The notes: generated by a model not told the origin, from the letters alone. Positions 3,994 through 34,456 are shown, numbered from the stretch's first letter. The stretch is 55,401 nucleotides of DNA from Vicinamibacterales bacterium (GCA_035711465.1 DASTCC010000256.1:1-55401); one strand, 5' to 3'. Numbers and translations are program-made.

Positions 3994-5346
<1,353 letters not shown>

Positions 5347-7868: not shown

Positions 7869-7923
7869 GGGTCGGAGCAGGGTCGGAGCAGGGTCGGAGT
7901 AGGGTCGGAGCAGGGTCGGAGCG
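7869..7923 (+). repeat. Five tandem copies of 11-nt unit GGGTCGGAGCA
   Basis: Copies at 7869, 7880, 7891 (GGGTCGGAGTA), 7902 and 7913 (GGGTCGGAGCG). The array starts 7 nt after the TAG stop of gene 6660..7862. Confidence 0.9.
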
Positions 7924-7952
7924 GCACCAGACCAGGGTCAGACCGACATCAG

Positions 7953-7991
7953 AACGGGGTCAGCGCCGGGTTTACGGGCGCTGACCCCGTT
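7953..7991 (+). terminator. Hairpin terminator after the NHL gene pair
   Basis: AACGGGGTCAGCGCC (7953..7967), 9-nt loop, GGCGCTGACCCCGTT (7977..7991): perfect 15-bp stem. No long T tract. Confidence 0.55.
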
Positions 7992-14799: not shown

Positions 14800-16728
14800 G
14801 TGTCCGAAGATCGCGATCTCGGTCTCGGCGCGAAGATCACGCGCAAGGACTTTCTGAACGCCTCGCTGCTCGGCGTCGGTGGGCTGCTGATCGGCGCGCC
14901 GTCTCCGGCCGAATGGCTTGCGGACCGCGCCGGCGCCTTGGCTCGGCAACAGCCGGAGATCGACGCGTGGACGGGCTACGGCGGCGTCGGCGATTACGCC
15001 GCGTCGAACGGCAACACGCGTCCCGTGCTCGAGGCCGCCCATCGAGTCCGCGATGGCCGCTACTCGCCGCTTCCGAGCAACACCGTCGACACCGGCGAGC
15101 TCTACGACGTCGTCGTCATCGGCGGCGGCATCTCGGGGCTGACGGCGGCGTATCGAGTCGCCAAAGCGACGAATCGAGCGAAGACCTGTCTCGTCATCGA
15201 GAACCATCCGATGTTCGGCGGCGGGGCGAAGCGCAACGAGTTCAGCGTCAACGGCGTGAAGCTGGTCGGCCCGCAGGCGTCGAACCAGTTCGGCGTTCCG
15301 CGCGAAGGCACGACCTCGCTCGCCAACGAGATCTGGACCGACTTCGGATTGCCGCGCGCGTTCGCCTACCAGGACCTGGCGCCGGAGGCCGGTGATCTGA
15401 AGATTCCACTCGACAACTACGCGCACATGGACGGCGTCAACGAGACGCAGGTGGACGTCGGCTACTTCTTCGACGACAGGACCGGCGCGGCGAGGCCGAC
15501 CTGGCTGCGCAACATCTGGCGGAACGATCTCGCGGACACGCCCTTTCCGCCGGAGGTGAAACAGGATCTGCTGCGATGGCGCAGCACCAGCGGTGACGCG
15601 ACCGACGAGTTCCGCCGGAAGCTCGACACGATGACCTACGCCGAGTACCTCGAACGCGAGCTCAAACTGCGCCCCGAGGTGACGAAGTTCGTCGCGCCGA
15701 TCGTCGGGCTGATCAACGGCGCTGGACCGGACGGCGTGTCGGCGTTCGCGGCGGCGCAGATCGGCATGCCTGGCGTCGCGCGGGTGCGGTCGCGCACCGG
15801 GCCGCTGCCGCAGTCGTTTCCCGGCGGCAACACGACCTTCGCGCGCCACTTCGTGAAGTACCTGGTGCCCGAGGCCGTTGCGGGCTCGGCGAGCTTCGAA
15901 GACGTTCATCGCGGCCGCGTCGACGTGCGGCTGCTCGACCGCCGCGATCGGCCCGTCCGCATCCGGCTCGGCGCGACCGTCGTCCGCGTCCAGCACACGA
16001 GGACGGTGAACCACGGAGAGCATGTCGCCGTCGCCTACGAGCAGGCCGGGCGCGTGCACCTCGTCCACGCCCGCGCGGTCGTGCTCGCTTCGAACGGGAT
16101 GATGAATCGCGCGGTCGTGGCCGATCTGCCGGACGACATCGCGCGCGCCTACGGCGAGTTCATGCACGCGCCGGCGCTGGTCGTCAACGTGGCACTGAAC
16201 AACTGGCGCTTCCTGCACCGCCTCGGCGCGCCCTGCTGCCGGTGGTTCGACGACGAGTTTGGATTTTCGTGCAACATCCGCCGCGCGATGGTTGCCGGCG
16301 ACCCGCTGCCGCCGATGACGCCGGATCAGCCGATCGTGCTGACGTTCTACATGGGTCTGTACGCGCTCGGGCGTCCGCTCGCTGAACAGCTGTCGTCAGG
16401 CCGCGCGAGGCTCCTCCAGACGAGCTATGCCGACTACGAGCGTCTGATTCGCCGCCACATGACCCGTCTGTTCGCCGGCGCCGGCTTCGATGCCGCGCGC
16501 GACATCGCCGGCATCATCCTGAACCGCTGGGGTCACGCGCGCCTCGTGCAGCCGCCGGGGTTCTACTTCGGCCGCGACGGCAAGCCATCGGCGCGCGAGG
16601 TCGTCGCAAAGGGCTACGGCCGGGTTGCGATCGGACATTCGGAGCTGAACGGGCATCAGAGCGCGACTGGTGCGATGGCGCAGGGCCATCGGGTTGCCGA
16701 GCAAGTGCTCGCGCTACTGCCAGCTTAG
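14800..16728 (+). CDS. FAD/NAD(P)-binding amine-oxidase-like oxidoreductase (spermidine-dehydrogenase-like), Tat-like RK leader
   Basis: 642 aa, GTG start. AKITRKDFLNASLLGVGGLLIGAP resembles a Tat signal with RK in place of RR. YDVVVIGGGISGLTAAYRV Rossmann motif. Size and layout resemble SpdH-type flavoproteins (resemblance only). Confidence 0.7.
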   Translation: MSEDRDLGLGAKITRKDFLNASLLGVGGLLIGAPSPAEWLADRAGALARQQPEIDAWTGYGGVGDYAASNGNTRPVLEAAHRVRDGRYSPLPSNTVDTGELYDVVVIGGGISGLTAAYRVAKATNRAKTCLVIENHPMFGGGAKRNEFSVNGVKLVGPQASNQFGVPREGTTSLANEIWTDFGLPRAFAYQDLAPEAGDLKIPLDNYAHMDGVNETQVDVGYFFDDRTGAARPTWLRNIWRNDLADTPFPPEVKQDLLRWRSTSGDATDEFRRKLDTMTYAEYLERELKLRPEVTKFVAPIVGLINGAGPDGVSAFAAAQIGMPGVARVRSRTGPLPQSFPGGNTTFARHFVKYLVPEAVAGSASFEDVHRGRVDVRLLDRRDRPVRIRLGATVVRVQHTRTVNHGEHVAVAYEQAGRVHLVHARAVVLASNGMMNRAVVADLPDDIARAYGEFMHAPALVVNVALNNWRFLHRLGAPCCRWFDDEFGFSCNIRRAMVAGDPLPPMTPDQPIVLTFYMGLYALGRPLAEQLSSGRARLLQTSYADYERLIRRHMTRLFAGAGFDAARDIAGIILNRWGHARLVQPPGFYFGRDGKPSAREVVAKGYGRVAIGHSELNGHQSATGAMAQGHRVAEQVLALLPA

Positions 16729-16785
16729 AACTGAGAACTGAGAACTGAACTTAGAACTAGGGTTCTGGATTCTCAGTTCTCAGTT
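16729..16785. terminator. Bidirectional hairpin built from GAACTGA heptamer repeats
   Basis: AACTGAGAACTGAGAA (16729..16744) pairs perfectly with TTCTCAGTTCTCAGTT (16770..16785). Inner AGAAC/GTTCT pair also present. The left arm starts right after TAG 16726..16728, and the right arm contains the stop of the minus-strand remnant (16780). Confidence 0.6.
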
Positions 16786-18509: not shown

Positions 18510-20204
18510 CTATCGTCCTCCACCTGCGGGAGCCGTGGCGCGCTCCTTCTTCTGTTTCTCGACCATCACCGCGACGTCCGCGGCCAGCTGCTTCGCGTCG
18601 TAGACGATGCCGTCCTTGATCGTGTACTTGACGCCACCGACACGCTCGGCGCGCGTCGTCTGGTCGTTGACGCGAATCGCGCCGGTGGCGTAGAGCGTCT
18701 TGAAGTTCTGCAGCGGATTCTGATCGACGAGCACGAGATCGGCGAGCATGCCGGCCTTGATCACGCCGCGGTCCACCGGCGTGCCGCTCGCTTCGGCCAG
18801 CGTCATCGCCCCGTTCATCGTCGCCGCTTGAATCACTTCGAGCGGATGGAATCCCGCTTCCTGCAGCATCTCGAGCTCATTGATGAAGCCGAAGCCGTAG
18901 GTCTGGTAGATGAAGCCGGAGTCGGATCCGGTGGTGATCCGGCCGCCCATCTTCTTGTAGTCGTTCATCAGCTGGAACCAGACCTGATAGAAGTTCCGCC
19001 AGGCCACCTCGTCCTCGGTGGTCCAGTCGTACCAGTAGGCGCCGTGGTTGCTGCGGCTCGGCGCGTAGAAGTCCATCAGCGACGGCAGCGTGTAGCGGTC
19101 GTGCCACTCGGCCTCACGGAAGCGCATGACGTCACGGCCGGCCGAATAGATCGTCAACGTCGGATCGAACACGGTGCCGAGCTTCAGGTGCTCCTCGAGG
19201 TACGCCTTCCATTCCGGGCTGCCCTGCGGATGAATCTTGTCCCAGAGCCGCGCCACCTGTCCGAACCGCCACTGCTCGTCGTTGTAGTTCATGTCGACCG
19301 GCCAGGGCTGGACGACGTAGTCCTTGAGCAGCGACTCGAAGTGGCCGTAGAAGTGGGTGATGCTCTGCAGCCCGAGGCGCGCCGCTTTGATCGCGTTCAT
19401 CTGCGCGACGCCGGTCTGCTGCAGATGCGCGGTGCTGCCCAGGTTGTTCTTCTTCGCTTCGTCGAGCAGCGCCGCCATGATCGACGGCTCTTCGGCGCCG
19501 ATCTTCAGGCCCTCGACGCCATTGGCCTTGCCCCAGCGCACCCACTCGCGCGCTTTCTCCGGCGAGTCGATCGCGCCACCGTCCCAGCCGGAGCCGGGGC
19601 GCTGATAGTTGACGATGCGCGGCGCGGCGATCAGGTTCTTGTTGCTGCGATCGCGCTCGCTGACCGAGAAGTTGTGAGCGGCGAGCGACACGCCACGCAC
19701 CGTGGTGACGCCGTGCGCCAGCCACAGCTTGTAGGCGTACTCCGCTTCCGCGTTCTTGGGCGGGCCGCCGGCATGGACGTGCATGTCGATGAAGCCCGGC
19801 AGCAGGTACATCCCGGTGCCGTCGATGACGTTGTCGCCCGCGGGCGCGCCGCCGCCGCGCGGCGGCAGTCCCGGCGTTCCCGCGCCGCCGATGCGCGCGA
19901 TGCGGTTGTTCGAGATGACGACGTTCATCGGCCCGTACGGCGGCGCGCCGGTGCCGTCGATGACCATGACGTTGCGGATCGTCAGCGTCTCGAACGGCCC
20001 GCGGCCTTCGTTCGCCCGCCGATCGGGCGCCGCGACGAACCCGCCGCGTCCGCCCTGCCGGCCCCGACCCTGCACCGCCGGCGCCGCGCCCTGCGCATCC
20101 GATCCTCTGGCCTCGACCGCCGGAGCCGGTGCGATGATGTCGCCGAGCAGAAACCCACAGAGCGCGCTCGCGCCCAACGCGACCGCTAGTCGCCGTGCTG
20201 ACAT
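18510..20204 (-). CDS. Secreted metal-dependent amidohydrolase-family hydrolase
   Basis: 564 aa. Signal peptide. LLPGFIDMHVHAGG (HxH metal site), GVTTVRG, TTGSDSG and GMLADLVLVDQNPL motifs of the amidohydrolase superfamily. AGGAGG SD. Confidence 0.85.
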   Translation of the reverse strand: MSARRLAVALGASALCGFLLGDIIAPAPAVEARGSDAQGAAPAVQGRGRQGGRGGFVAAPDRRANEGRGPFETLTIRNVMVIDGTGAPPYGPMNVVISNNRIARIGGAGTPGLPPRGGGAPAGDNVIDGTGMYLLPGFIDMHVHAGGPPKNAEAEYAYKLWLAHGVTTVRGVSLAAHNFSVSERDRSNKNLIAAPRIVNYQRPGSGWDGGAIDSPEKAREWVRWGKANGVEGLKIGAEEPSIMAALLDEAKKNNLGSTAHLQQTGVAQMNAIKAARLGLQSITHFYGHFESLLKDYVVQPWPVDMNYNDEQWRFGQVARLWDKIHPQGSPEWKAYLEEHLKLGTVFDPTLTIYSAGRDVMRFREAEWHDRYTLPSLMDFYAPSRSNHGAYWYDWTTEDEVAWRNFYQVWFQLMNDYKKMGGRITTGSDSGFIYQTYGFGFINELEMLQEAGFHPLEVIQAATMNGAMTLAEASGTPVDRGVIKAGMLADLVLVDQNPLQNFKTLYATGAIRVNDQTTRAERVGGVKYTIKDGIVYDAKQLAADVAVMVEKQKKERATAPAGGGR

Positions 20205-20266
20205 GGAGGCCTCCTGAGGTCAAAGATTATATCGGGTGAAGACGGGGCACGACCGGAGACGCGACC

Positions 20267-20358
20267 TGTCGTCACCCGTGTCACCCGTCGTGACCCGTCG
20301 TAACCCGCCCGTCACCTGTCGTAACCCGTCGTCACCCGTCGTAACCCGTCGTTACCCG
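20267..20358 (-). repeat. About nine imperfect tandem copies of 10-nt unit GGGT[TGAC]ACGAC (minus-strand reading)
   Basis: Plus strand reads ...TGTCGTCACCCGTGTCACCCGTCGTGACCCGTCGTAACCCGCCCGTCACCTGTCGTAACCCGTCGTCACCCGTCGTAACCCGTCGTTACCCG. The last unit contains the TAA stop (20352..20354) of the YfcH-like gene. Confidence 0.85.
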
Positions 20359-21278
20359 TAAATCGCTGTGAGCGCTGAGTCGAGGTCCGTGTAGCGGAAC
20401 ACGAATCCTTGTTTGCGTGCGCGTTCGGGGACGACGCGTTGGCCCTGGAGCAGGGCGACGGTTGCCATCTCGCCGACGAGGATGCGGAGCGCGAAGCCCG
20501 GTACGGCGAGCCAGCTCGGGCGGTGCAGCACCCGGCCGAGCGCCGAGGCCATTTCCACGCCGGTGACGGGCTCCGGCGCGGTGGCGTTCAAGGGGCCAGA
20601 GATCGCCGAGTTCTCGATGGCCCAGTCGAGGAGCGCGATCCAGTCGTCGCGGTGGATCCACGAGATCGTCTGCGCGCCGCTGCCGAGCGGGCCGCCGACG
20701 AAGAACTTGAACGGCCGCGCCATCTGCTGCAGCGCGCCGCCGTCAGCGGCGAGCGCTATGCCGCTGCGCAGGATGACGAGCCGCGATCCGAGCGCCGTCA
20801 GCGGATGTGCTTCCGCTTCCCAGGCGACGCACATCCGACCGAGGAAATCGTCGCCGGGCGGAAACGACTCGTCGAAGGTGTGATTCGGATTGGTGCCGTA
20901 GTAGCCGATCGCCGACCCTTGCACGAACACGGCCGGCGGTGTGGTGGCGGCGCGCGCGGCGGCTACGAGGTTGCGCGTCGCCAGCGTGCGGCTTCTCAGC
21001 ATCTCGCGCTTGTACTGCGCCGACCAGCGGCGATCGGCGAGGCCGGCGCCGGCGAGATTGATCACGGCGTCGGCGCCATCGATCTCGCGAGCCCAGGCGT
21101 CGAGCCGCGCCGGGTCGGGCGTCTCGACCGGCGACCATGCGACGTCGCGCGCCAGGGGCGAGCTCGACGCCGCCCGCGGCTTGCGCGTCAGGACGACGAC
21201 CTGGAACTGTCGATCGGTGAAGTGCTCGACGAGCGGCTTGCCGAGGAACCCCGTGCCGCCGGCGATGACGAGCTTCAT
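20352..21278 (-). CDS. TIGR01777/YfcH-like NAD-dependent epimerase-family SDR with C-terminal DUF1731
   Basis: MKLVIAGGTGFLGKPLVEHF Rossmann start, about 300 aa, C-terminal GFVFRYTDLDSAL block typical of the SDR39U1/YfcH family. Confidence 0.8.
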   Translation of the reverse strand: MKLVIAGGTGFLGKPLVEHFTDRQFQVVVLTRKPRAASSSPLARDVAWSPVETPDPARLDAWAREIDGADAVINLAGAGLADRRWSAQYKREMLRSRTLATRNLVAAARAATTPPAVFVQGSAIGYYGTNPNHTFDESFPPGDDFLGRMCVAWEAEAHPLTALGSRLVILRSGIALAADGGALQQMARPFKFFVGGPLGSGAQTISWIHRDDWIALLDWAIENSAISGPLNATAPEPVTGVEMASALGRVLHRPSWLAVPGFALRILVGEMATVALLQGQRVVPERARKQGFVFRYTDLDSALTAIYG

Positions 21279-26763: not shown

Positions 26764-26805
26764 ACTTGAAACTTAGAACTCAAGACTTGAAACTCAGAAC
26801 TCAGG
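26764..26805 (-). repeat. Two tandem 21-nt AT-rich units spanning the hisD stop
   Basis: Plus strand ACTTGAAACTTAGAACTCAAG (26764..26784) and ACTTGAAACTCAGAACTCAGG (26785..26805). On the sense strand each unit reads GAG TTC TGA/TAA in the hisD frame. Confidence 0.85.
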
Positions 26806-29464: not shown

Positions 29465-32146
29465 TCACTCCGCAGCACGAAGCGCGTCTGTAGGGTGGAT
29501 CCGCAGCGCCCTGCGAATCGGTACCGTGCAGGCCACGGCGCTGACGATCATCACCATGATCGCGCTTGCGGCGATGAGACTGGCGAGCGACAGCGTGATG
29601 TGACCCTCGGAAAGCAGCGGCAGCATCGTGATGGCAGCGGCGCCAATCACGGCGCCGATCGCGACCCGCCGCATCGGTGTTCGCAGGATCTCCGACAGCA
29701 GCCGGCGCCGGTCCGCACCGAGCGCGACGCGGATGCCGATCTCCCGCGTGCGCCGCGAGACCGTGAACGACACGACGGCGTAGATGCCGGTCAGCGCCAG
29801 CAGCAGCAGCAAGCCGATGACCCCGAGAGAGAAGCGGAACCAGAACGCATAGAAGCGTGATTCGGTCCGGACGAGATCGCCAAGGGTCGAGAAGCCGGAG
29901 AGCCGCAGCGACGGATCGACGCGCGCGGCAATCGCGCGCACTCTGGCGGCGATCGTCCCGCTCCCTCCGGCCGCGTGCACGATCAGCCGGGCCGGCTGCG
30001 TCCCGGGCACGAGCGGCGTGTAGATGCCGGCGCGCTCGCGCAGACCGGGATCGGCGGTCATCGTCAGATCGGTGACGACGCCGACGATCTCTCGCCATGG
30101 CTCCGGCGCTTGTTCGTCAGACGTCGACGGCGTCGAGGCTTTGAATCGCAGTCGTCGCCCGATTGCCGGTGCGCCGCCCAGCACCTCGGCTACGAACGAC
30201 TGGTTGACGACGATGACTGTGGCGTCGGGGCGCGTCTCGGCCGGGTGAAAGTCGCGTCCCGCCACCATCTTCGCGCCGAGTACCTGAAAAAAGCCGGGAG
30301 ATACCGTTGCCACCTGCGGTCGATGCCCGAGCGCCAGACGCGACGGCTGCGTAGGGCCGTCGACTTCGATCCACCGTCGGGGAACGTAGGCGCCTGGCGG
30401 ATCGCCGAACGTCGCCGATCGAATGGCGCCATCGACGCGGAGCTCCTCGAGCAGCGTCGCGCTCGACGATTCGAACCGTCCGCGGTTGGCGGCCGTCGCG
30501 TCGTCGGGAGTCGATGCGCCCGCGGCTGTCGCGCCGTGCAGCGCGACAGCCGCGGCCACGTACTCGTCGCCAGCCGCGCCGAGATCGAAGCGCGAGAATC
30601 CCCAGGTCTCCCGGCCAACGGAGACGACGATCGGCACGCACGCGACGGTGAGCGCGACCTGAGCGACGATGACGCCGGTCCAGATGCCGCCGAAACGCAC
30701 GGTGGATACGCCCGGCGCGCCGATCTTCCAGCGCGCCGCCCCGCCCGTCACGCGGAACGCCGGCCATGCGCCGGCGACCAGTGCGACCAGGCCCGCCAGT
30801 CCAACCGCATAGACCGCGGTCCACGGCGACAAGCTCATGTGCATCCAGAACGGCCACCGCTCGATGCCGAGGCCGACCTCGACGAGACGAAAGACCCAAC
30901 GCATCCCAACGGAGGCCAGGCCCAGGCCCGCCGCGGCGCAGACCAGCGCCAGCAGCATCGTCTCGACGAACAGCTGACTGACGATGCGTCCGCGGCTGGC
31001 GCCGAGCGCGGTGCGCATCGCGAGCTCCGCCTCGCGGCTCACAGTCCGCGCGAACATCAGCAGCGCCACGTTCGATGCCACGAACACCAGGAACAGCACC
31101 GCGGCGACATTGGTCGAACCGAACGCCAGTCGCGCGACGACGGGCGCGTCGATCATCGCCCTCGCGTACGGCAGCACGGTCGGCACCACACGCGCATGGG
31201 TGTCGGGGAAGTCGCGTGCCGTCCGCGCGCCGAGCGCCGTAACCTCGGCCTGCGCGCTCGCCAGCGTCGCGCCAGAGGCCAGACGACCGAACACGAAACC
31301 TGACGGAGGCCCGCCACGCCGGCCCAGTTCGGACGCAGTGAATCGAAGCGGCACCCACGCGTCGTGCGCGACCGGAAACAGGAATCCCTCCGGCATCACG
31401 CCGACGATGGTCACCGGCCGCGCATCCAGGTACGCGGTGCGGCCGATCACGTCCACGGCGCCGCCGAAGCGCTGCTGCCAGACGTGGAAGCCGATCACCG
31501 CGACGTCCGGTCCGCCGACGACCTCGTCGGAGGCGACGAGCGTGCGTCCGATGCGCGCCGAAGCCTGCACCGTGGCGAATGCGGCGGCGCTCGTCTCCGC
31601 CACTTCGATCGGCTCGCTTTGCTGGTCGGCGGTGATCAGATTGCGCGTCTGCGATCGAAAGGCGCCAACGTGCTCGACCGATCGCAGCTGCGTCCGCCAC
31701 GTCTCCAGATCCCAGGCGGTGTGCGTCACGTTACGGCCGGTCTCGGTGTTCCAGAGCCGGAATCCGACGATCCGGTCGCCGCCGGCGATCGGCAGCGACG
31801 GCGACAGCACCTGTGAGACCACTTCGAACGTCAGCGCGCCAACGGCGATGGCGAATCCGAGCGCCAGGCTGGCAACGAGCGACAGGCCCGGATAACGAAG
31901 CATCAGCCGCATGCCGAGCCGAACGTCGAGCCACGACAGTTGCAGCCGAGGACGCGGCAAGCGCAAGCGCGCGAGCGCGAACGCCATGTCCAACCCCTCG
32001 ACCGTCGTCAGCCACCACGCAGCGAGGCGTCCCCGCTGCTGGACGCGGCGGCCGTGCGCCTCTTCGAGATCGCCGAGGACGTCGTGAACCCGGTCACGAG
32101 GCGCGAGCCCGCTGAGCAGGGCGGCAATCAGGCGAGGCGGCTTCAT
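29465..32146 (-). CDS. ADOP-family duplicated FtsX/MacB-type permease with N-terminal permease-prefix domain
   Basis: 893 aa. Two MacB_PCD+FtsX halves. C-terminal ...RRALRIHPTDALRAAE. N-terminal cytoplasmic prefix (DVLGDLEEAH). ATGA overlap with the padR stop. Confidence 0.9.
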   Translation of the reverse strand: MKPPRLIAALLSGLAPRDRVHDVLGDLEEAHGRRVQQRGRLAAWWLTTVEGLDMAFALARLRLPRPRLQLSWLDVRLGMRLMLRYPGLSLVASLALGFAIAVGALTFEVVSQVLSPSLPIAGGDRIVGFRLWNTETGRNVTHTAWDLETWRTQLRSVEHVGAFRSQTRNLITADQQSEPIEVAETSAAAFATVQASARIGRTLVASDEVVGGPDVAVIGFHVWQQRFGGAVDVIGRTAYLDARPVTIVGVMPEGFLFPVAHDAWVPLRFTASELGRRGGPPSGFVFGRLASGATLASAQAEVTALGARTARDFPDTHARVVPTVLPYARAMIDAPVVARLAFGSTNVAAVLFLVFVASNVALLMFARTVSREAELAMRTALGASRGRIVSQLFVETMLLALVCAAAGLGLASVGMRWVFRLVEVGLGIERWPFWMHMSLSPWTAVYAVGLAGLVALVAGAWPAFRVTGGAARWKIGAPGVSTVRFGGIWTGVIVAQVALTVACVPIVVSVGRETWGFSRFDLGAAGDEYVAAAVALHGATAAGASTPDDATAANRGRFESSSATLLEELRVDGAIRSATFGDPPGAYVPRRWIEVDGPTQPSRLALGHRPQVATVSPGFFQVLGAKMVAGRDFHPAETRPDATVIVVNQSFVAEVLGGAPAIGRRLRFKASTPSTSDEQAPEPWREIVGVVTDLTMTADPGLRERAGIYTPLVPGTQPARLIVHAAGGSGTIAARVRAIAARVDPSLRLSGFSTLGDLVRTESRFYAFWFRFSLGVIGLLLLLALTGIYAVVSFTVSRRTREIGIRVALGADRRRLLSEILRTPMRRVAIGAVIGAAAITMLPLLSEGHITLSLASLIAASAIMVMIVSAVACTVPIRRALRIHPTDALRAAE

Positions 32147-32490
32147 CTCGTGCCTCCGGTCAGGCCTTTCACGCGCCCCGCCATCGCCTGAATCGCGCGC
32201 GTCGTCGCCCGCACGGCCTCGACGCCGGCGGGTTCGACGACGACCAGCCGGCGCGGCCGCCCGCCCCGCTCCGGCCGCGCGTCGCCAAGCCGCGTCGAGA
32301 TCAGTTTCTTGCTCTCGAGACGCTGCAGCGTCGTAAACACGTTCGCCCGCCTGACGGAGCGCCCGGTGCGCTCGGCGATGTCGTCGGCAATCGAAACCGT
32401 GTAAGCCTCATCAGGCCCAAGATGAAGCGCCGCAAGCAACACCAGGAGCTCGAACTCGGCGAGCGACTCCGCCCGGGTCTTTTTAGTCAC
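32143..32490 (-). CDS. PadR-family transcriptional regulator (ADOP-associated type)
   Basis: 115 aa, GTG start. EFELLVLLAALHLGPDEAYTVSIADDIAERTGRSVRRANVFTTLQRLESKKLISTRLGD...GGRPRR = PadR winged helix. Confidence 0.9.
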   Translation of the reverse strand: MTKKTRAESLAEFELLVLLAALHLGPDEAYTVSIADDIAERTGRSVRRANVFTTLQRLESKKLISTRLGDARPERGGRPRRLVVVEPAGVEAVRATTRAIQAMAGRVKGLTGGTR

Positions 32491-32525
32491 GATGTGACTA
32501 TATTGACCCGCCGCCGCCCCGTCAA
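32484..32525 (-). promoter_or_regulatory. padR promoter (TTGACG-N17-TATAGT) plus 17-bp palindrome centred at the start codon
   Basis: Minus strand TTGACG (32525..32520), 17-nt spacer, TATAGT (32502..32497), 6 nt, GTG (32490). Palindrome TAGTCAC-GAT-GTGACTA (32484..32500) overlaps the -10 box and the start codon. Confidence 0.5.
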
Positions 32526-32621
32526 CCGTCGTTACCCGGGTACCCGCGTCACCCGTCGTAACCCGCCGTCACCCGCGGTTACCAGCCGTAACCCGTCGTT
32601 ACCTGTCGTAACCCGTCGTTA
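32519..32621 (-). repeat. About ten imperfect tandem copies of 10-nt unit GGGT[TGA]ACGAC (second array)
   Basis: Plus strand ...CGTCAACCGTCGTTACCCGGGTACCCGCGTCACCCGTCGTAACCCGCCGTCACCCGCGGTTACCAGCCGTAACCCGTCGTTACCTGTCGTAACCCGTCGTTA. The last unit contains the ggt TAA stop (32619..32621). The first unit contributes the padR -35 box. Confidence 0.85.
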
Positions 32622-34340
32622 CCTGCCACCAGGTTTGGCAGCTTTAGACGTCGGATCCCTGGGATCCGCGACACCGAACGCGGTGCCCGTGATCGGATGC
32701 ATCCAGATCGTCTGCGCGGATCCCTGGCTGCCCTGGGCGCGCGCGTCGTGGCCGAGCGCCTTCAGCGCCGCCAGCACTTCGTCGGAGACGCCGTTGGTCT
32801 CGATCGTCAGTCGATCCGGCAGCCACTGATGGTGCATGCGCGGCGCGTCCACCGCTTCGCGGCCGGTCCGTTCCCAGGCGGTGACGTACAGCACGACGGT
32901 GAGCACGGTGTTGATGATCGTCCGTCCGCCGGGCGAACCGGTGATCAGGACCGGCTTGCCGTTGCGCGCGACGATGGTCGGCGTCATCGAGCTCAGCATG
33001 CGCTTGCCGGGCGCGATCACGTTCGGCGGCGTGCCGATGTCGCCGGTCTCATTGGTCGTGCCCGGCTTCTTGTTGAAGTCGCCCATCTCGTTGTTGAGCA
33101 GGATGCCGGTGCCGGCGACGACGACGTGCGAGCCGTAGCCCCCTTCGAGCGTGTAGGTGTTGGCCACCGCCATGCCGTCCTTGTCGATGACCGAGAAATG
33201 CGTCGTCTCGTCGGACTCGGCCGGCAGCGCCGCCGAAAGGATGTCGTTGCCGAGCACGCGGCTGAGCGACGCGCGTTTCATGTCGATCGAGCGCGCCACG
33301 TCCCGGGCGTGCGCCTTCGACGTCAGCTTCTCGATCGGCACCTGCACGAAATCGGGATCGCCGAGGAACCGCGCGCGGTCGAGATAGGCGCGGCGCATCG
33401 CTTCGGTGGTGAGGTGCAGCGCTTCGACCGAGCCAGGCTTCCGCTTCTGGATGTTCTGTGACTCGAGGATGTTGAGCATCTCGATCAGCGCGACGCCGCC
33501 CGAGCTCGGCGGCGGCATCGAGATGATCTCGTAGCCGTTGAACGTGCCCTTGACCGGCGCGCGTTCCTTCGCCTCGTAGGCGGCCAGATCGTCCTTGGTG
33601 ATCAAGCCGCCGTTGGCGGCCATGTCGGCCGCGATGCGATCGGCGATCCATCCTGTGTAGAACGCGTCGGGGCCGTCGTTGGCGATCGAGGTCAGGCTCT
33701 TCGCGAGATCGGCGAGGACGATGCGATCGCCGGCTGCCCACTGTCCGCCGCCCGGCTTGCCGTAAGCGGCCACCGACGCGGGAAACGGCTGCATCCGCCG
33801 CAGCTCGTTGTTGAGACTTCGCGCCAGGGTCTCCGACATCGTGAAGCCGTTCGCCGCGAGCTGCGCGGCCGGCAGGACGATGTCTTTCCATGGCAGCTTG
33901 CCGAGCTTCGAATGCGCGAGCGCCATGCCGCGCACGGTGCCCGGCACTCCGGGCGCGAGATAGCCGGCGGCCGTGAGGCTGCGATCGATCTCGCCGTCCT
34001 TGCCGAGGTACATCGTCGGCGTCGCCTTGCCCGGCGCGCGCTCGCGATAGTCGAATGTCGTCGCCGTGCCGTCGGGCCGGCGGACGATCATGAAGCCGCC
34101 GCCGCCGAGGTTGCCGGCGGTCGGGTGAGTGACGGCCATCGCGAACGCGGTGGCGACCGCGGCGTCGACGGCGTTCCCGCCTTTGGCGAGGACGTCGGCG
34201 CCGAGATCCGCGGCGACATCCGACGCCGATACGACGAGTCCGTCGCGCGAGCTGACGCCAAGGTCGGCAGGAACGAGCTGAGTGATCGCGCCGGCCGGCG
34301 CGATCGCCAGAAATGCGAGCAATAACGCGAGAACTCTCAT
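32619..34340 (-). CDS. ggt: Gamma-glutamyltransferase
   Basis: Start ATG 34340 (MRVLALLLAFLAIAPAGA signal). GGNAVDAAVA, NLGGGGFM, autoprocessing site ESDETTHFSVIDKDGMAV, GSPGGRTIINTV. Confidence 0.9.
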   Translation of the reverse strand: MRVLALLLAFLAIAPAGAITQLVPADLGVSSRDGLVVSASDVAADLGADVLAKGGNAVDAAVATAFAMAVTHPTAGNLGGGGFMIVRRPDGTATTFDYRERAPGKATPTMYLGKDGEIDRSLTAAGYLAPGVPGTVRGMALAHSKLGKLPWKDIVLPAAQLAANGFTMSETLARSLNNELRRMQPFPASVAAYGKPGGGQWAAGDRIVLADLAKSLTSIANDGPDAFYTGWIADRIAADMAANGGLITKDDLAAYEAKERAPVKGTFNGYEIISMPPPSSGGVALIEMLNILESQNIQKRKPGSVEALHLTTEAMRRAYLDRARFLGDPDFVQVPIEKLTSKAHARDVARSIDMKRASLSRVLGNDILSAALPAESDETTHFSVIDKDGMAVANTYTLEGGYGSHVVVAGTGILLNNEMGDFNKKPGTTNETGDIGTPPNVIAPGKRMLSSMTPTIVARNGKPVLITGSPGGRTIINTVLTVVLYVTAWERTGREAVDAPRMHHQWLPDRLTIETNGVSDEVLAALKALGHDARAQGSQGSAQTIWMHPITGTAFGVADPRDPTSKAAKPGGR

Positions 34341-34456
34341 CGCGGTCACCCCAGGTGTGCCGGGAAGCTTAGCACTCGTCGCGCCCGGCCGGTGCGTCGG
34401 TTCGGACACACGCTCTGCTACCATTTGCCCATTCGGTCCTACCCCTGGAGGTTTCC

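Follow-up and report, generated by a model that had tools for sequence, protein, structure and literature searches.

A 10-nt-period repeat family beside open reading frame ends in Vicinamibacterales and its structural link to PF05635 cassettes

Cyanobacterial STRRs are tandem 7-nt intergenic repeats without assigned function, and mycobacterial MIRUs are intercistronic tandem repeats of 46–100 nt whose ends lie over the flanking stop and start codons and whose small open reading frames (ORFs) keep translational coupling. Gene-adjacent short-unit repeats, such as the STRRs and the GGGAATC arrays of Xanthomonas, have been known for decades, and we know of no mechanism or partner protein described for them. 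Here we analyse a decamer repeat, RGGTNACGRC, in a 55,401-nt stretch of DNA from a Vicinamibacterales bacterium (GCA_035711465.1 DASTCC010000256.1:1-55401, hereafter the window), where it forms one tandem array at the end of a yfcH-like gene (array 1) and another at the end of the gamma-glutamyltranspeptidase gene ggt (array 2). The window is contig C256 of a 606-contig, 5.28-Mb metagenome-assembled genome (MAG) of 69% G+C, called G000 below, and the coordinates of its features are collected in Table 1. We are fairly confident that the decamer arrays are members of the known class of ORF-adjacent repeats; they differ from STRRs and MIRUs in unit length, and no MIRU-like small ORFs were seen in them.

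The closest described systems are the heptamers of Rehm et al. 2015 (PMC4692102), GGGAATC in Xanthomonas campestris and X. axonopodis and GGGGA(C/T)T in Nostoc PCC 7120, which form strongly intergenic tandem arrays. Their G-strand is almost exclusively closer to the ORF on its 5′ side whatever the orientation of that ORF, so that it is within 50 bp of or overlaps the stop codon when on the coding strand and sits just upstream of start codons when on the non-coding strand (PMC4692102). Inverted pairs occur, the repeats form G-quadruplexes (G4s) in vitro, most copies are transcribed, array length and sequence vary among related species with the sites often kept, four units are preferred, and the function is unexplained; no link to mobile elements or to PF05635 genes was reported (PMC4692102). 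The decamers obey the same positional rule and also occur as inverted pairs, but their unit is 10 nt long with a GTNAC core instead of 7 nt, they have no preference for four units, and they are restricted to two Vicinamibacterales genera. New in the decamer family are therefore the unit with its 10-nt period, the exact overlap with the stop codon and the two-genus restriction, whereas the class itself is already known and unexplained. An earlier reading of array 1, made from the sequence alone, had held that no described family matches this unit. This is supported for the unit, as no paper in the library searched uses it as a repeat and none was found on repeats in Vicinamibacteria, but not for the class, which the heptamers had already established.

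Two further systems are relevant for comparison. The ORF-bearing intervening sequences (IVSs) of 23S rRNA in Coxiella burnetii and Leptospira carry a four-helix-bundle gene (S23p/IVP, PF05635) within a stem loop, and the Coxiella stem, made of terminal inverted repeats, is cleaved by RNase III (PMC4990558). A decamer-armed PF05635 cassette on contig C417 of G000 has the same gene-in-stem layout with decamer arrays as its arms; unlike the 23S IVS, which sits in helix 25 or 45 of the rRNA, it lies between protein-coding genes and its arms are long tandem arrays, and the arrays of the window hold no gene. The REP/BIME/REPIN elements and their RAYT genes, in turn, are high-copy extragenic sequences at gene 3′ ends that often form inverted-dimer hairpins and are patchily distributed among relatives, with a 20–40-bp imperfect palindrome bearing a GTAG or CGTC tag as the unit and a Y1 transposase as the product of the flanked gene (Di Nocera et al. 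2013, PMC3733652). The decamers resemble REPs in location, dimer habit, patchy distribution and the presence of a repeat-flanked gene, but they are non-hairpin 10-nt tandem words with a 5-nt GTNAC palindrome, and the protein encoded between them is a four-helix bundle without known catalytic activity.

The decamers are a dispersed family confined to two genera of one Vicinamibacterales family. Calling an array wherever at least four GGTNAC cores are spaced 8–12 nt apart (a relaxed core chain), we find 30 arrays in G000 and 0 in the reversed-sequence control, with a median of 8 cores per array (range 4–18) and no excess of four-unit arrays; the period is 10 in 85–100% of unit spacings. In the host's family the pattern is present in 4 of 71 species, namely G000, which is the sole member of its genus, and three of the four species of one other genus. 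When 185,579 species were scanned for the exact pattern, many loci were likewise returned only in the same three MAGs, DATNEY01, CAVVUL01 and CAZJTG01, with isolated single matches elsewhere. Pooled counts below are based on 80 decamer arrays from four genomes (G000, G019, G054 and G053). A 9-mer sibling family, GGGTACGAC, has one base fewer in its core, which is a palindromic GTAC, and occurs in five genera, with 92 pattern matches in G052, 145 in G001, 33 in G053, 36 in G000 and 0 in G009. G054 has the most decamers (182 pattern matches) yet 0 matches to the 9-mer, and because the 9-mer and decamer counts differ so sharply the repeat families must turn over fast between species of one genus.

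In the window, GGGTNACGAC occurs 10 times, always on the minus strand and always within arrays 1 and 2, compared with 0.58 occurrences in shuffled sequences. Tandem Repeats Finder (TRF) reports array 1 as a period-10 array at 20264-20359 with 9.6 copies and 81% matches, and array 2 as a period-10 array at 32526-32627. The sequence-only reading had counted about nine 10-nt units in array 1 and had placed the TAA of the yfcH-like gene inside the first of them, and both statements hold, as nine RGGTNACGRC units are present and the stop lies in GGGTAACGAC. It had also let the array fill the entire space up to a TATAAT box; the box is where it was placed, but the perfect units end at 20268 and a 36-nt tail of degenerate sequence follows. 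Array 2 had been described as near-identical to array 1, of which the shared unit family and the shared stop anchoring stand, whereas near-identity does not (74% matches). The conclusion drawn from the pair, that the element belongs to a dispersed family and did not arise by local slippage, is borne out by the 30 arrays of G000 and by those of three other species, and the genome-wide pattern search that had been proposed as a check indeed uncovers decamer arrays beyond the two window loci and in relatives. The 147-nt spacer that contains array 1 is found base for base in two independent Logan assemblies (SRR32369668 and SRR25158432), so array 1 is not an assembly artefact.

Folding sets the two arrays apart. 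With the G4 option of ViennaRNA switched on, the tail of array 1 pairs back onto its G-rich arm to give an asymmetric hairpin (–70.9 kcal/mol, z –2.5) in which the partner arm amounts to 2 units only, while array 2 has no significant fold (z –0.2), no partner arm and no G4 placed in its units. A terminator scan found no intrinsic terminators on the sense strand at either array, no ORF lies inside either, and Rfam gave 0 matches at the gathering threshold between positions 15000 and 36000 of the window. A coding repeat was considered and rejected for array 1. A CRISPR array was also rejected, as the units are joined head to tail without spacers, while CRISPR repeats are 24–48 nt long and separated by unique spacers.

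The stop-codon anchoring noted earlier for the two window arrays recurs throughout G000 and in the three other species, and it is part of a wider rule by which the 5′ end of the G-strand is flush with an ORF boundary, usually a stop and sometimes a start codon. Among the 80 arrays, the 5′ end of the G-strand is at most 12 nt from the stop codon of a co-directional gene in 36 and at most 12 nt from the start codon of an oppositely pointing gene in 9; at least one start-flush example has a credible N-terminus, namely that of a Ser/Thr kinase in which the kinase motif starts near residue 12. For the decamers of G000 the median 5′ gap is –0.5 nt compared with a median 3′ gap of 100 nt, and the 5′ gap is the shorter one in 22 of 24 cases. 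With all unit families of this genome taken together, 93 of 137 arrays have a gene closer to the 5′ end of the purine strand than to its 3′ end (p = 3e-5).

The unit itself provides an explanation for the exact overlap. When N is G or A, which is the case in 62% of G000 units, the unit holds a stop codon (TGA in GGTGAC, TAA in GGTAAC), whereas the C-strand has one only when N is T and is almost stop-free. As such units recur every 10 nt, a spacing not divisible by three, the G-strand closes all three frames within about three units, and a gene loses little when an arm lies against its final codons or replaces them. The anchoring thus probably results from tolerance of the G-strand at ORF ends, growth by slippage and removal of neutral spacer, and not from any sensing of stop codons. 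At yfcH the G000 protein ends in ..LTAIYG*, with GGG TAA taken from unit 1, and that of the closest relative (G009) in ..LTAIFARRV*; array 1 has replaced about the last four codons, the G000 protein is 3 aa shorter, and in G009 the amidohydrolase gene follows yfcH after 31 nt without an array. At ggt the native end ..GGR* (AGG TAA) is already unit-like, and G052 has AGGTAAAGGTGAC there without an array. For the C-strand, we observed a CPBP/CAAX-protease-like ORF in G000 (contig C316:2321-3430, minus strand) that meets no stop before a C-strand decamer array (2450-2508) and runs through it into the start region of the next gene, with more than 60 codons added.

At ten loci two arrays stand in inverted order. 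All eight gene-less pairs tested (8/8) have the purine-rich arm first, and they fold with minimum free energies of –84 to –222 kcal/mol (z –3.7 to –17.8) and 43–99 cross-arm base pairs. Some inverted pairs separate convergent genes; others stand between genes in tandem and there extend from the stop codon through to the next start codon. We call this architecture array-armed hairpin repeats, by which we mean intergenic palindromes whose 5′ arm is a purine-rich array of 7–13-nt units and whose 3′ arm is its complement, and the decamer family is their 10-nt-period member. The same architecture also forms the stem around PF05635 genes, which encode 23S-rRNA-IVS protein/Avd-like four-helix bundles. 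The arms at start codons, the G-first inverted pairs with long hairpins and the arms that bracket a PF05635 gene had all escaped the sequence-only reading. A hairpin with a T-run lies within 140 nt downstream of 4 of the 80 arrays, only two of them convincing, so the arrays are not classical intrinsic terminators; in these two, at G000 C30 and G053 L063, a separate canonical terminator follows the array, which is thus located between it and the stop codon and hence in the 3′ UTR. Mini-hairpins between neighbouring units (GTGAC with GTCAC) were rejected, as complementary N is not enriched (0.32 observed, 0.26 expected in G000).

G000 has six PF05635 matches, and the one on contig C417 lies between two decamer arms (Table 1), each abutting the stop codon of one of two convergent genes; its protein has as nearest solved structure PDB 2GSC, which is XCC0516 of Xanthomonas campestris. 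Of the other five copies, three sit between GGGCTGC, GGGTTCCG and CGGCGGG arrays, one has an array on one side and one has none. The closest paralogue of the C417 gene, at C533:13653-13949, is without flanking arrays. In five relatives, PF05635 homologues have matched inverted flanking arrays at 14 of 15 loci; decamer-armed homologues are present in relatives at G054:C5:38724-39050 and G053:C11:260738-261064, and two of the 14 loci have 9-mer GGTACGAC arms. Across Acidobacteriota, arrays stand on both sides of the gene at 27 of 30 PF05635 loci from 30 genomes and are mostly purine-first. On the protein tree the unit classes GGT(N)ACGAC, GGTTC.. and GTCC.. require 3 changes, a number reached or undercut by 0 of 1000 label shuffles. 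PF05635 is the only repeat-flanked gene that was found, Y1 transposases (RAYT) not having been searched for. Together these data make us fairly confident of a structural link between the decamer family and PF05635 cassettes. We found no paper linking PF05635 genes to tandem arrays; nevertheless, repeat no. 15 in supplement file 2 of Rehm et al. (Xcc 622956-622983) is a four-unit GGGAATC array 6 nt from XCC0517 and over the start codon of XCC0516 (PMC4692102), and XCC0516 is a PF05635 protein with a pentameric structure (PDB 2GSC).

On balance we lean towards reading array 1 as a solo arm of the lineage-specific RGGTNACGRC repeat that retains two units of its partner arm, and the gene-less arrays next to ORF ends as relatives or targets of the PF05635 cassette. 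In such a model the decamer-armed PF05635 cassette of this genome would have the gene-less arrays as its non-autonomous relatives or as its targets, and they might derive from it or depend on it. Copies would reach sites beside ORF ends, and the arrays would then grow and shrink by slippage until a sequence under selection is met. Where paired arms are transcribed they would fold into stems of 40–100 bp, which RNase III might process as it does in the 23S IVS, while solo arms would serve largely as unstructured 3′-UTR or intercistronic filler. The arrays may also affect the flanking mRNAs, and a benefit to the host is conceivable.

Several observations weigh against this reading. We saw neither transposition nor target-site duplications nor polymorphism between strains, and array 1 shows no copy-number change among three assemblies (the MAG and the two Logan assemblies), which are all identical. 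Apart from the paralogue at C533, nothing homologous to the interior of the C417 cassette was found at the gene-less arrays, and the C417 protein lacks the basic C-terminal tail of that paralogue, so its gene may be decaying. The gene upstream of the C417 cassette is conserved in six relatives, but downstream synteny differs everywhere and no precise empty site can be defined. The repeats and their genes do not always coincide either. G019 has short decamer arrays and no decamer-armed PF05635 gene, and for the 9-mer the mismatch runs in both directions, as no gene with 9-mer arms was detected in G052 despite its 92 matches, whereas in G019 one is present alongside only 1 match. Incomplete assemblies may explain part of this; overall, a cognate PF05635 gene in 3 of the 4 decamer-bearing species is roughly consistent with the reading, and the 9-mer sibling contradicts it or leaves it undecided. 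The association of unit class with the protein tree could reflect specific recognition, but it could also come from mere co-inheritance of a gene with its flanks. Finally, the gene boundaries were obtained with our own GC3-based ORF caller and not with a trained gene finder.

If the arrays were instead RNA structural modules selected by the host (terminators, RNase III sites, blocks to 3′-exonucleases or operon insulators) with no mobile or PF05635 link, their location right past stop codons, the very stable hairpins of the pairs and the asymmetric hairpin of array 1 would all be as expected, and REP/BIME elements do have such effects in enterobacteria (PMC3733652). Sites orthologous to decamer sites of the other genus, moreover, carry an array, often of another unit family, at a frequency above the base rate (4/11 compared with 10.8%, p = 0.02). 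However, the range is patchy (4/71 species), families differ between species of one genus, the closest relative does without an array at the yfcH junction, where it has a 31-nt spacer, array 2 is without significant structure, and a T-run terminator follows only 2–4 of the 80 arrays, the two clear cases being separate canonical terminators downstream. We therefore consider this explanation unlikely as an account of the family. The opposite extreme, in which the arrays are purely local microsatellites that arose by independent slippage from chance seeds near stops without any spread between loci, draws on the variation of copy number and unit variants from locus to locus and on the unit-like native end of ggt (AGG TAA, or AGGTAAAGGTGAC in G052, without an array). 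We consider it very improbable, since a single consensus is shared by ~30 loci of G000 and, in three other species, by tens of loci and is essentially absent from the rest of the 185,579 species, the reversed-sequence control gives 0, and identical arms flank a PF05635 gene.

The remaining two alternatives go back to the sequence-only reading, which noted G-quadruplex spacing in array 1 and offered a face-of-helix protein-binding array as an alternative. In the former, the arrays would be selected elements whose G-rich sense strand folds into G4s just past the stop codon, either in the transcript or in the non-template DNA, and tunes termination, mRNA stability or expression of the next gene. 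The two stretches on which it was based are present (20357..20325 is G3N7G3N7G3N7G3 and 20310..20284 is G3N1G3N7G3N7G3) and both fit the G3N1-7 x4 rule, G4 formation in vitro is established for the related heptamers of Xanthomonas and Nostoc, which follow the same positional rule, and several sister units also begin with GGG(G)T. Yet the third G of the tract, position 1 of the unit, is the least conserved of the fixed positions, with G at 66% of G000 units, 48% of G019 units, 56% of G054 units and 38% of G053 units and mostly A in the rest. The canonical motif is found in only 20 of the 80 arrays and in 0 of 7 in G019, and because the G3 tract is so poorly conserved G4 capacity is not a property of the decamer family. 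The 7-nt loops are at the upper limit of the rule, even with its G4 option ViennaRNA favours a hairpin in array 1 and leaves the units of array 2 free of G4s, sister families of the same architecture lack G3 runs (GGTGCTG, AACTCAA, GTCCGAG), and arms at start codons place the C-strand in the mRNA. Selection for quadruplexes thus strikes us as improbable. In the latter alternative, GTNAC cores repeated once per helical turn would recruit a nucleoid protein, roadblock or regulator to double-stranded DNA; the period of 10 with its palindromic core would suit this, as would the palindromic GTAC of the 9-mer sibling. Yet 31 of 211 spacings in G000 (15%) are 9, 11 or 12 nt, which destroys the phasing along an arm. 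Sister families share the architecture with periods of 7–13, strict strand polarity with respect to ORF ends is unexpected for a symmetric double-stranded site, and there is no consistently adjacent regulator gene, so we regard a helically phased array as very improbable. No conservation of G4 capacity or of helical phasing is seen in the family or in the class, and either is possible as a local effect.

Within the reading of array 1 as a solo arm of a repeat linked to PF05635 cassettes, a more specific version is that PF05635 pentamers are unit-specific partners of the arrays, each paralogue with its own unit, which would drive or stabilise the spread and homogenisation of gene-less arms at ORF ends in a manner comparable to RAYT and REP. 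We put this forward tentatively. A GGT(N)ACGAC-armed PF05635 paralogue would serve the decamer and 9-mer families, two siblings whose cores are one base apart and which have distinct PF05635 paralogues as carriers in sister species. If true, such a partnership would explain the G-rich heptamer repeats known from Xanthomonas and cyanobacteria as well.

With the decamer family, the class of gene-adjacent repeats comes to include a 10-nt unit, and what its members share is shown to be neither G4 capacity nor helical phasing. With decamer-armed PF05635 cassettes in three species and the GGGAATC array at XCC0516, an old descriptive puzzle becomes a testable question of binding and processing. In practical terms, the arrays shorten or lengthen ORF ends and break short-read assemblies, and G000 displays the phenomenon at high density, with an array at most 40 nt past the stop codon of ~11% of its predicted genes.

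Table 1. Coordinates of the arrays and neighbouring features in the window, and of the C417 cassette and unit families elsewhere in G000
Feature	Position	Strand	Details
Array 1, G-rich arm	20268..20357	-	Nine RGGTNACGRC units, read out 20357..20268
Array 1, unit order	20357..20268	-	GGGTAACGAC GGGTTACGAC GGGTGACGAC GGGTTACGAC AGGTGACGGGC GGGTTACGAC GGGTCACGAC GGGTGACAC GGGTGACGAC
Stop codon (TAA) of yfcH-like gene	20352..20354	-	In unit 1, GGGTAACGAC (20348-20357)
yfcH-like DUF1731/epimerase gene	20352..21278	-	308-aa ORF, end abutted by array 1
Array 1, degenerate tail	20232..20267	-	36 nt: G-unit AGGTCGCGTC, TCCG, complementary-type GTCGTGCCCC GTCTTCACCC, GA
TATAAT box	20226..20231	-	Ahead of amidohydrolase gene; promoter scan scored no -35 partner and no sigma-70-like pair
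Amidohydrolase gene	18510..20204	-	3′ of array 1; Shine–Dalgarno sequence GGAGG, ATG at 20204
Array 2, decamer arm	32528..32624	-	~10 units, unit 1 is AGGTAACGAC
Gamma-glutamyltranspeptidase gene (ggt)	32619-34424	-	Stop TAA 32619-32621 inside AGGTAACGAC
PadR gene (followed by a MacB/FtsX duplicated permease)	32143-32490	-	
Promoter-like TTGACG-17-TATAGT	32497..32525	-	10/12 matches; -35 inside last degenerate unit of array 2
Sister array (GGGTCGGAGCA)x5	7869..7922	+	6 nt past TAG stop, followed by GC-rich hairpin 7952-7990
Sister array, AGAACTG / CAGTTCT heptamers	16724..16785		Purine-first palindrome, AT-richer than the 69% G+C genome
Sister array, AACTYRR-type heptamers	26764..26803	+	Single arm, AT-richer than the 69% G+C genome
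PF05635 gene of the C417 cassette	C417, ORF 4095-4442		115 aa; domain match C417:4119-4412, 48.5 bits against a 33.8-bit cut-off; also TIGR02436
C417 cassette, G-arm	C417, 3834-3975	+	14 decamer units, flanking the PF05635 gene
C417 cassette, C-arm	C417, 4525-4690	-	18 decamer units, flanking the PF05635 gene
Unit families of G000 (TRF)			GGTGCTG, GGCTGCR, GGCTTGG, AACTCAR, GGTTCCGG, AATCGGG, GGGTACGAC, GGGTNACGAC, GGGTCGGAGCA, others

At the yfcH/amidohydrolase junction tgTATAAT is present in the array-less relative G052 too, so the promoter at array 1 is probably older than the array. Past array 2, the GTG of padR (32490) is only 6 nt beyond the -10 element of the promoter-like sequence, which suggests that the padR mRNA is probably leaderless. 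In relatives ggt is directly followed by the his leader with no padR-permease pair in between, and the pair is therefore a lineage-specific insertion or loss.

The decamers share their genome with many other arrays. Running TRF on the whole G000 assembly (periods 7–13, at least 4 copies) yields 287 arrays in about ten unit families, many of them purine-first inverted pairs, and sister families of the same architecture have periods of 7, 8, 9, 11 and 13. By a lenient TRF criterion, 340 of the 3161 predicted genes (10.8%) have an array of 6–13-nt period that starts at most 40 nt after the stop codon. Many arrays of G000 sit at contig ends, which is probably the cause of its fragmentation into 606 contigs; the 11-mer family GGGTCGGAGCA alone has ~30 arrays, many of them in this position.

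Decamer sites of the other genus have 11 orthologous sites in G000, and four of these carry an array by the same TRF criterion, one of decamers and three of other families, compared with the base rate of 10.8% (p = 0.02). This is suggestive only, but it would fit array sites that persist while their units change. Just past the ggt stop, other genera have other units: (GGGTTCGRC)n in G023 (L089), (GGGGTCAGAC)n in G019 (L090) and G054 (L091), and a GGGGTCAGGTC-type palindrome in G016 (L087), with none in G009, G001 and G052. In G019 the GGGGTCAGAC words recur in inverted orientation ~300 nt downstream of ggt, where they bracket the his-leader region.

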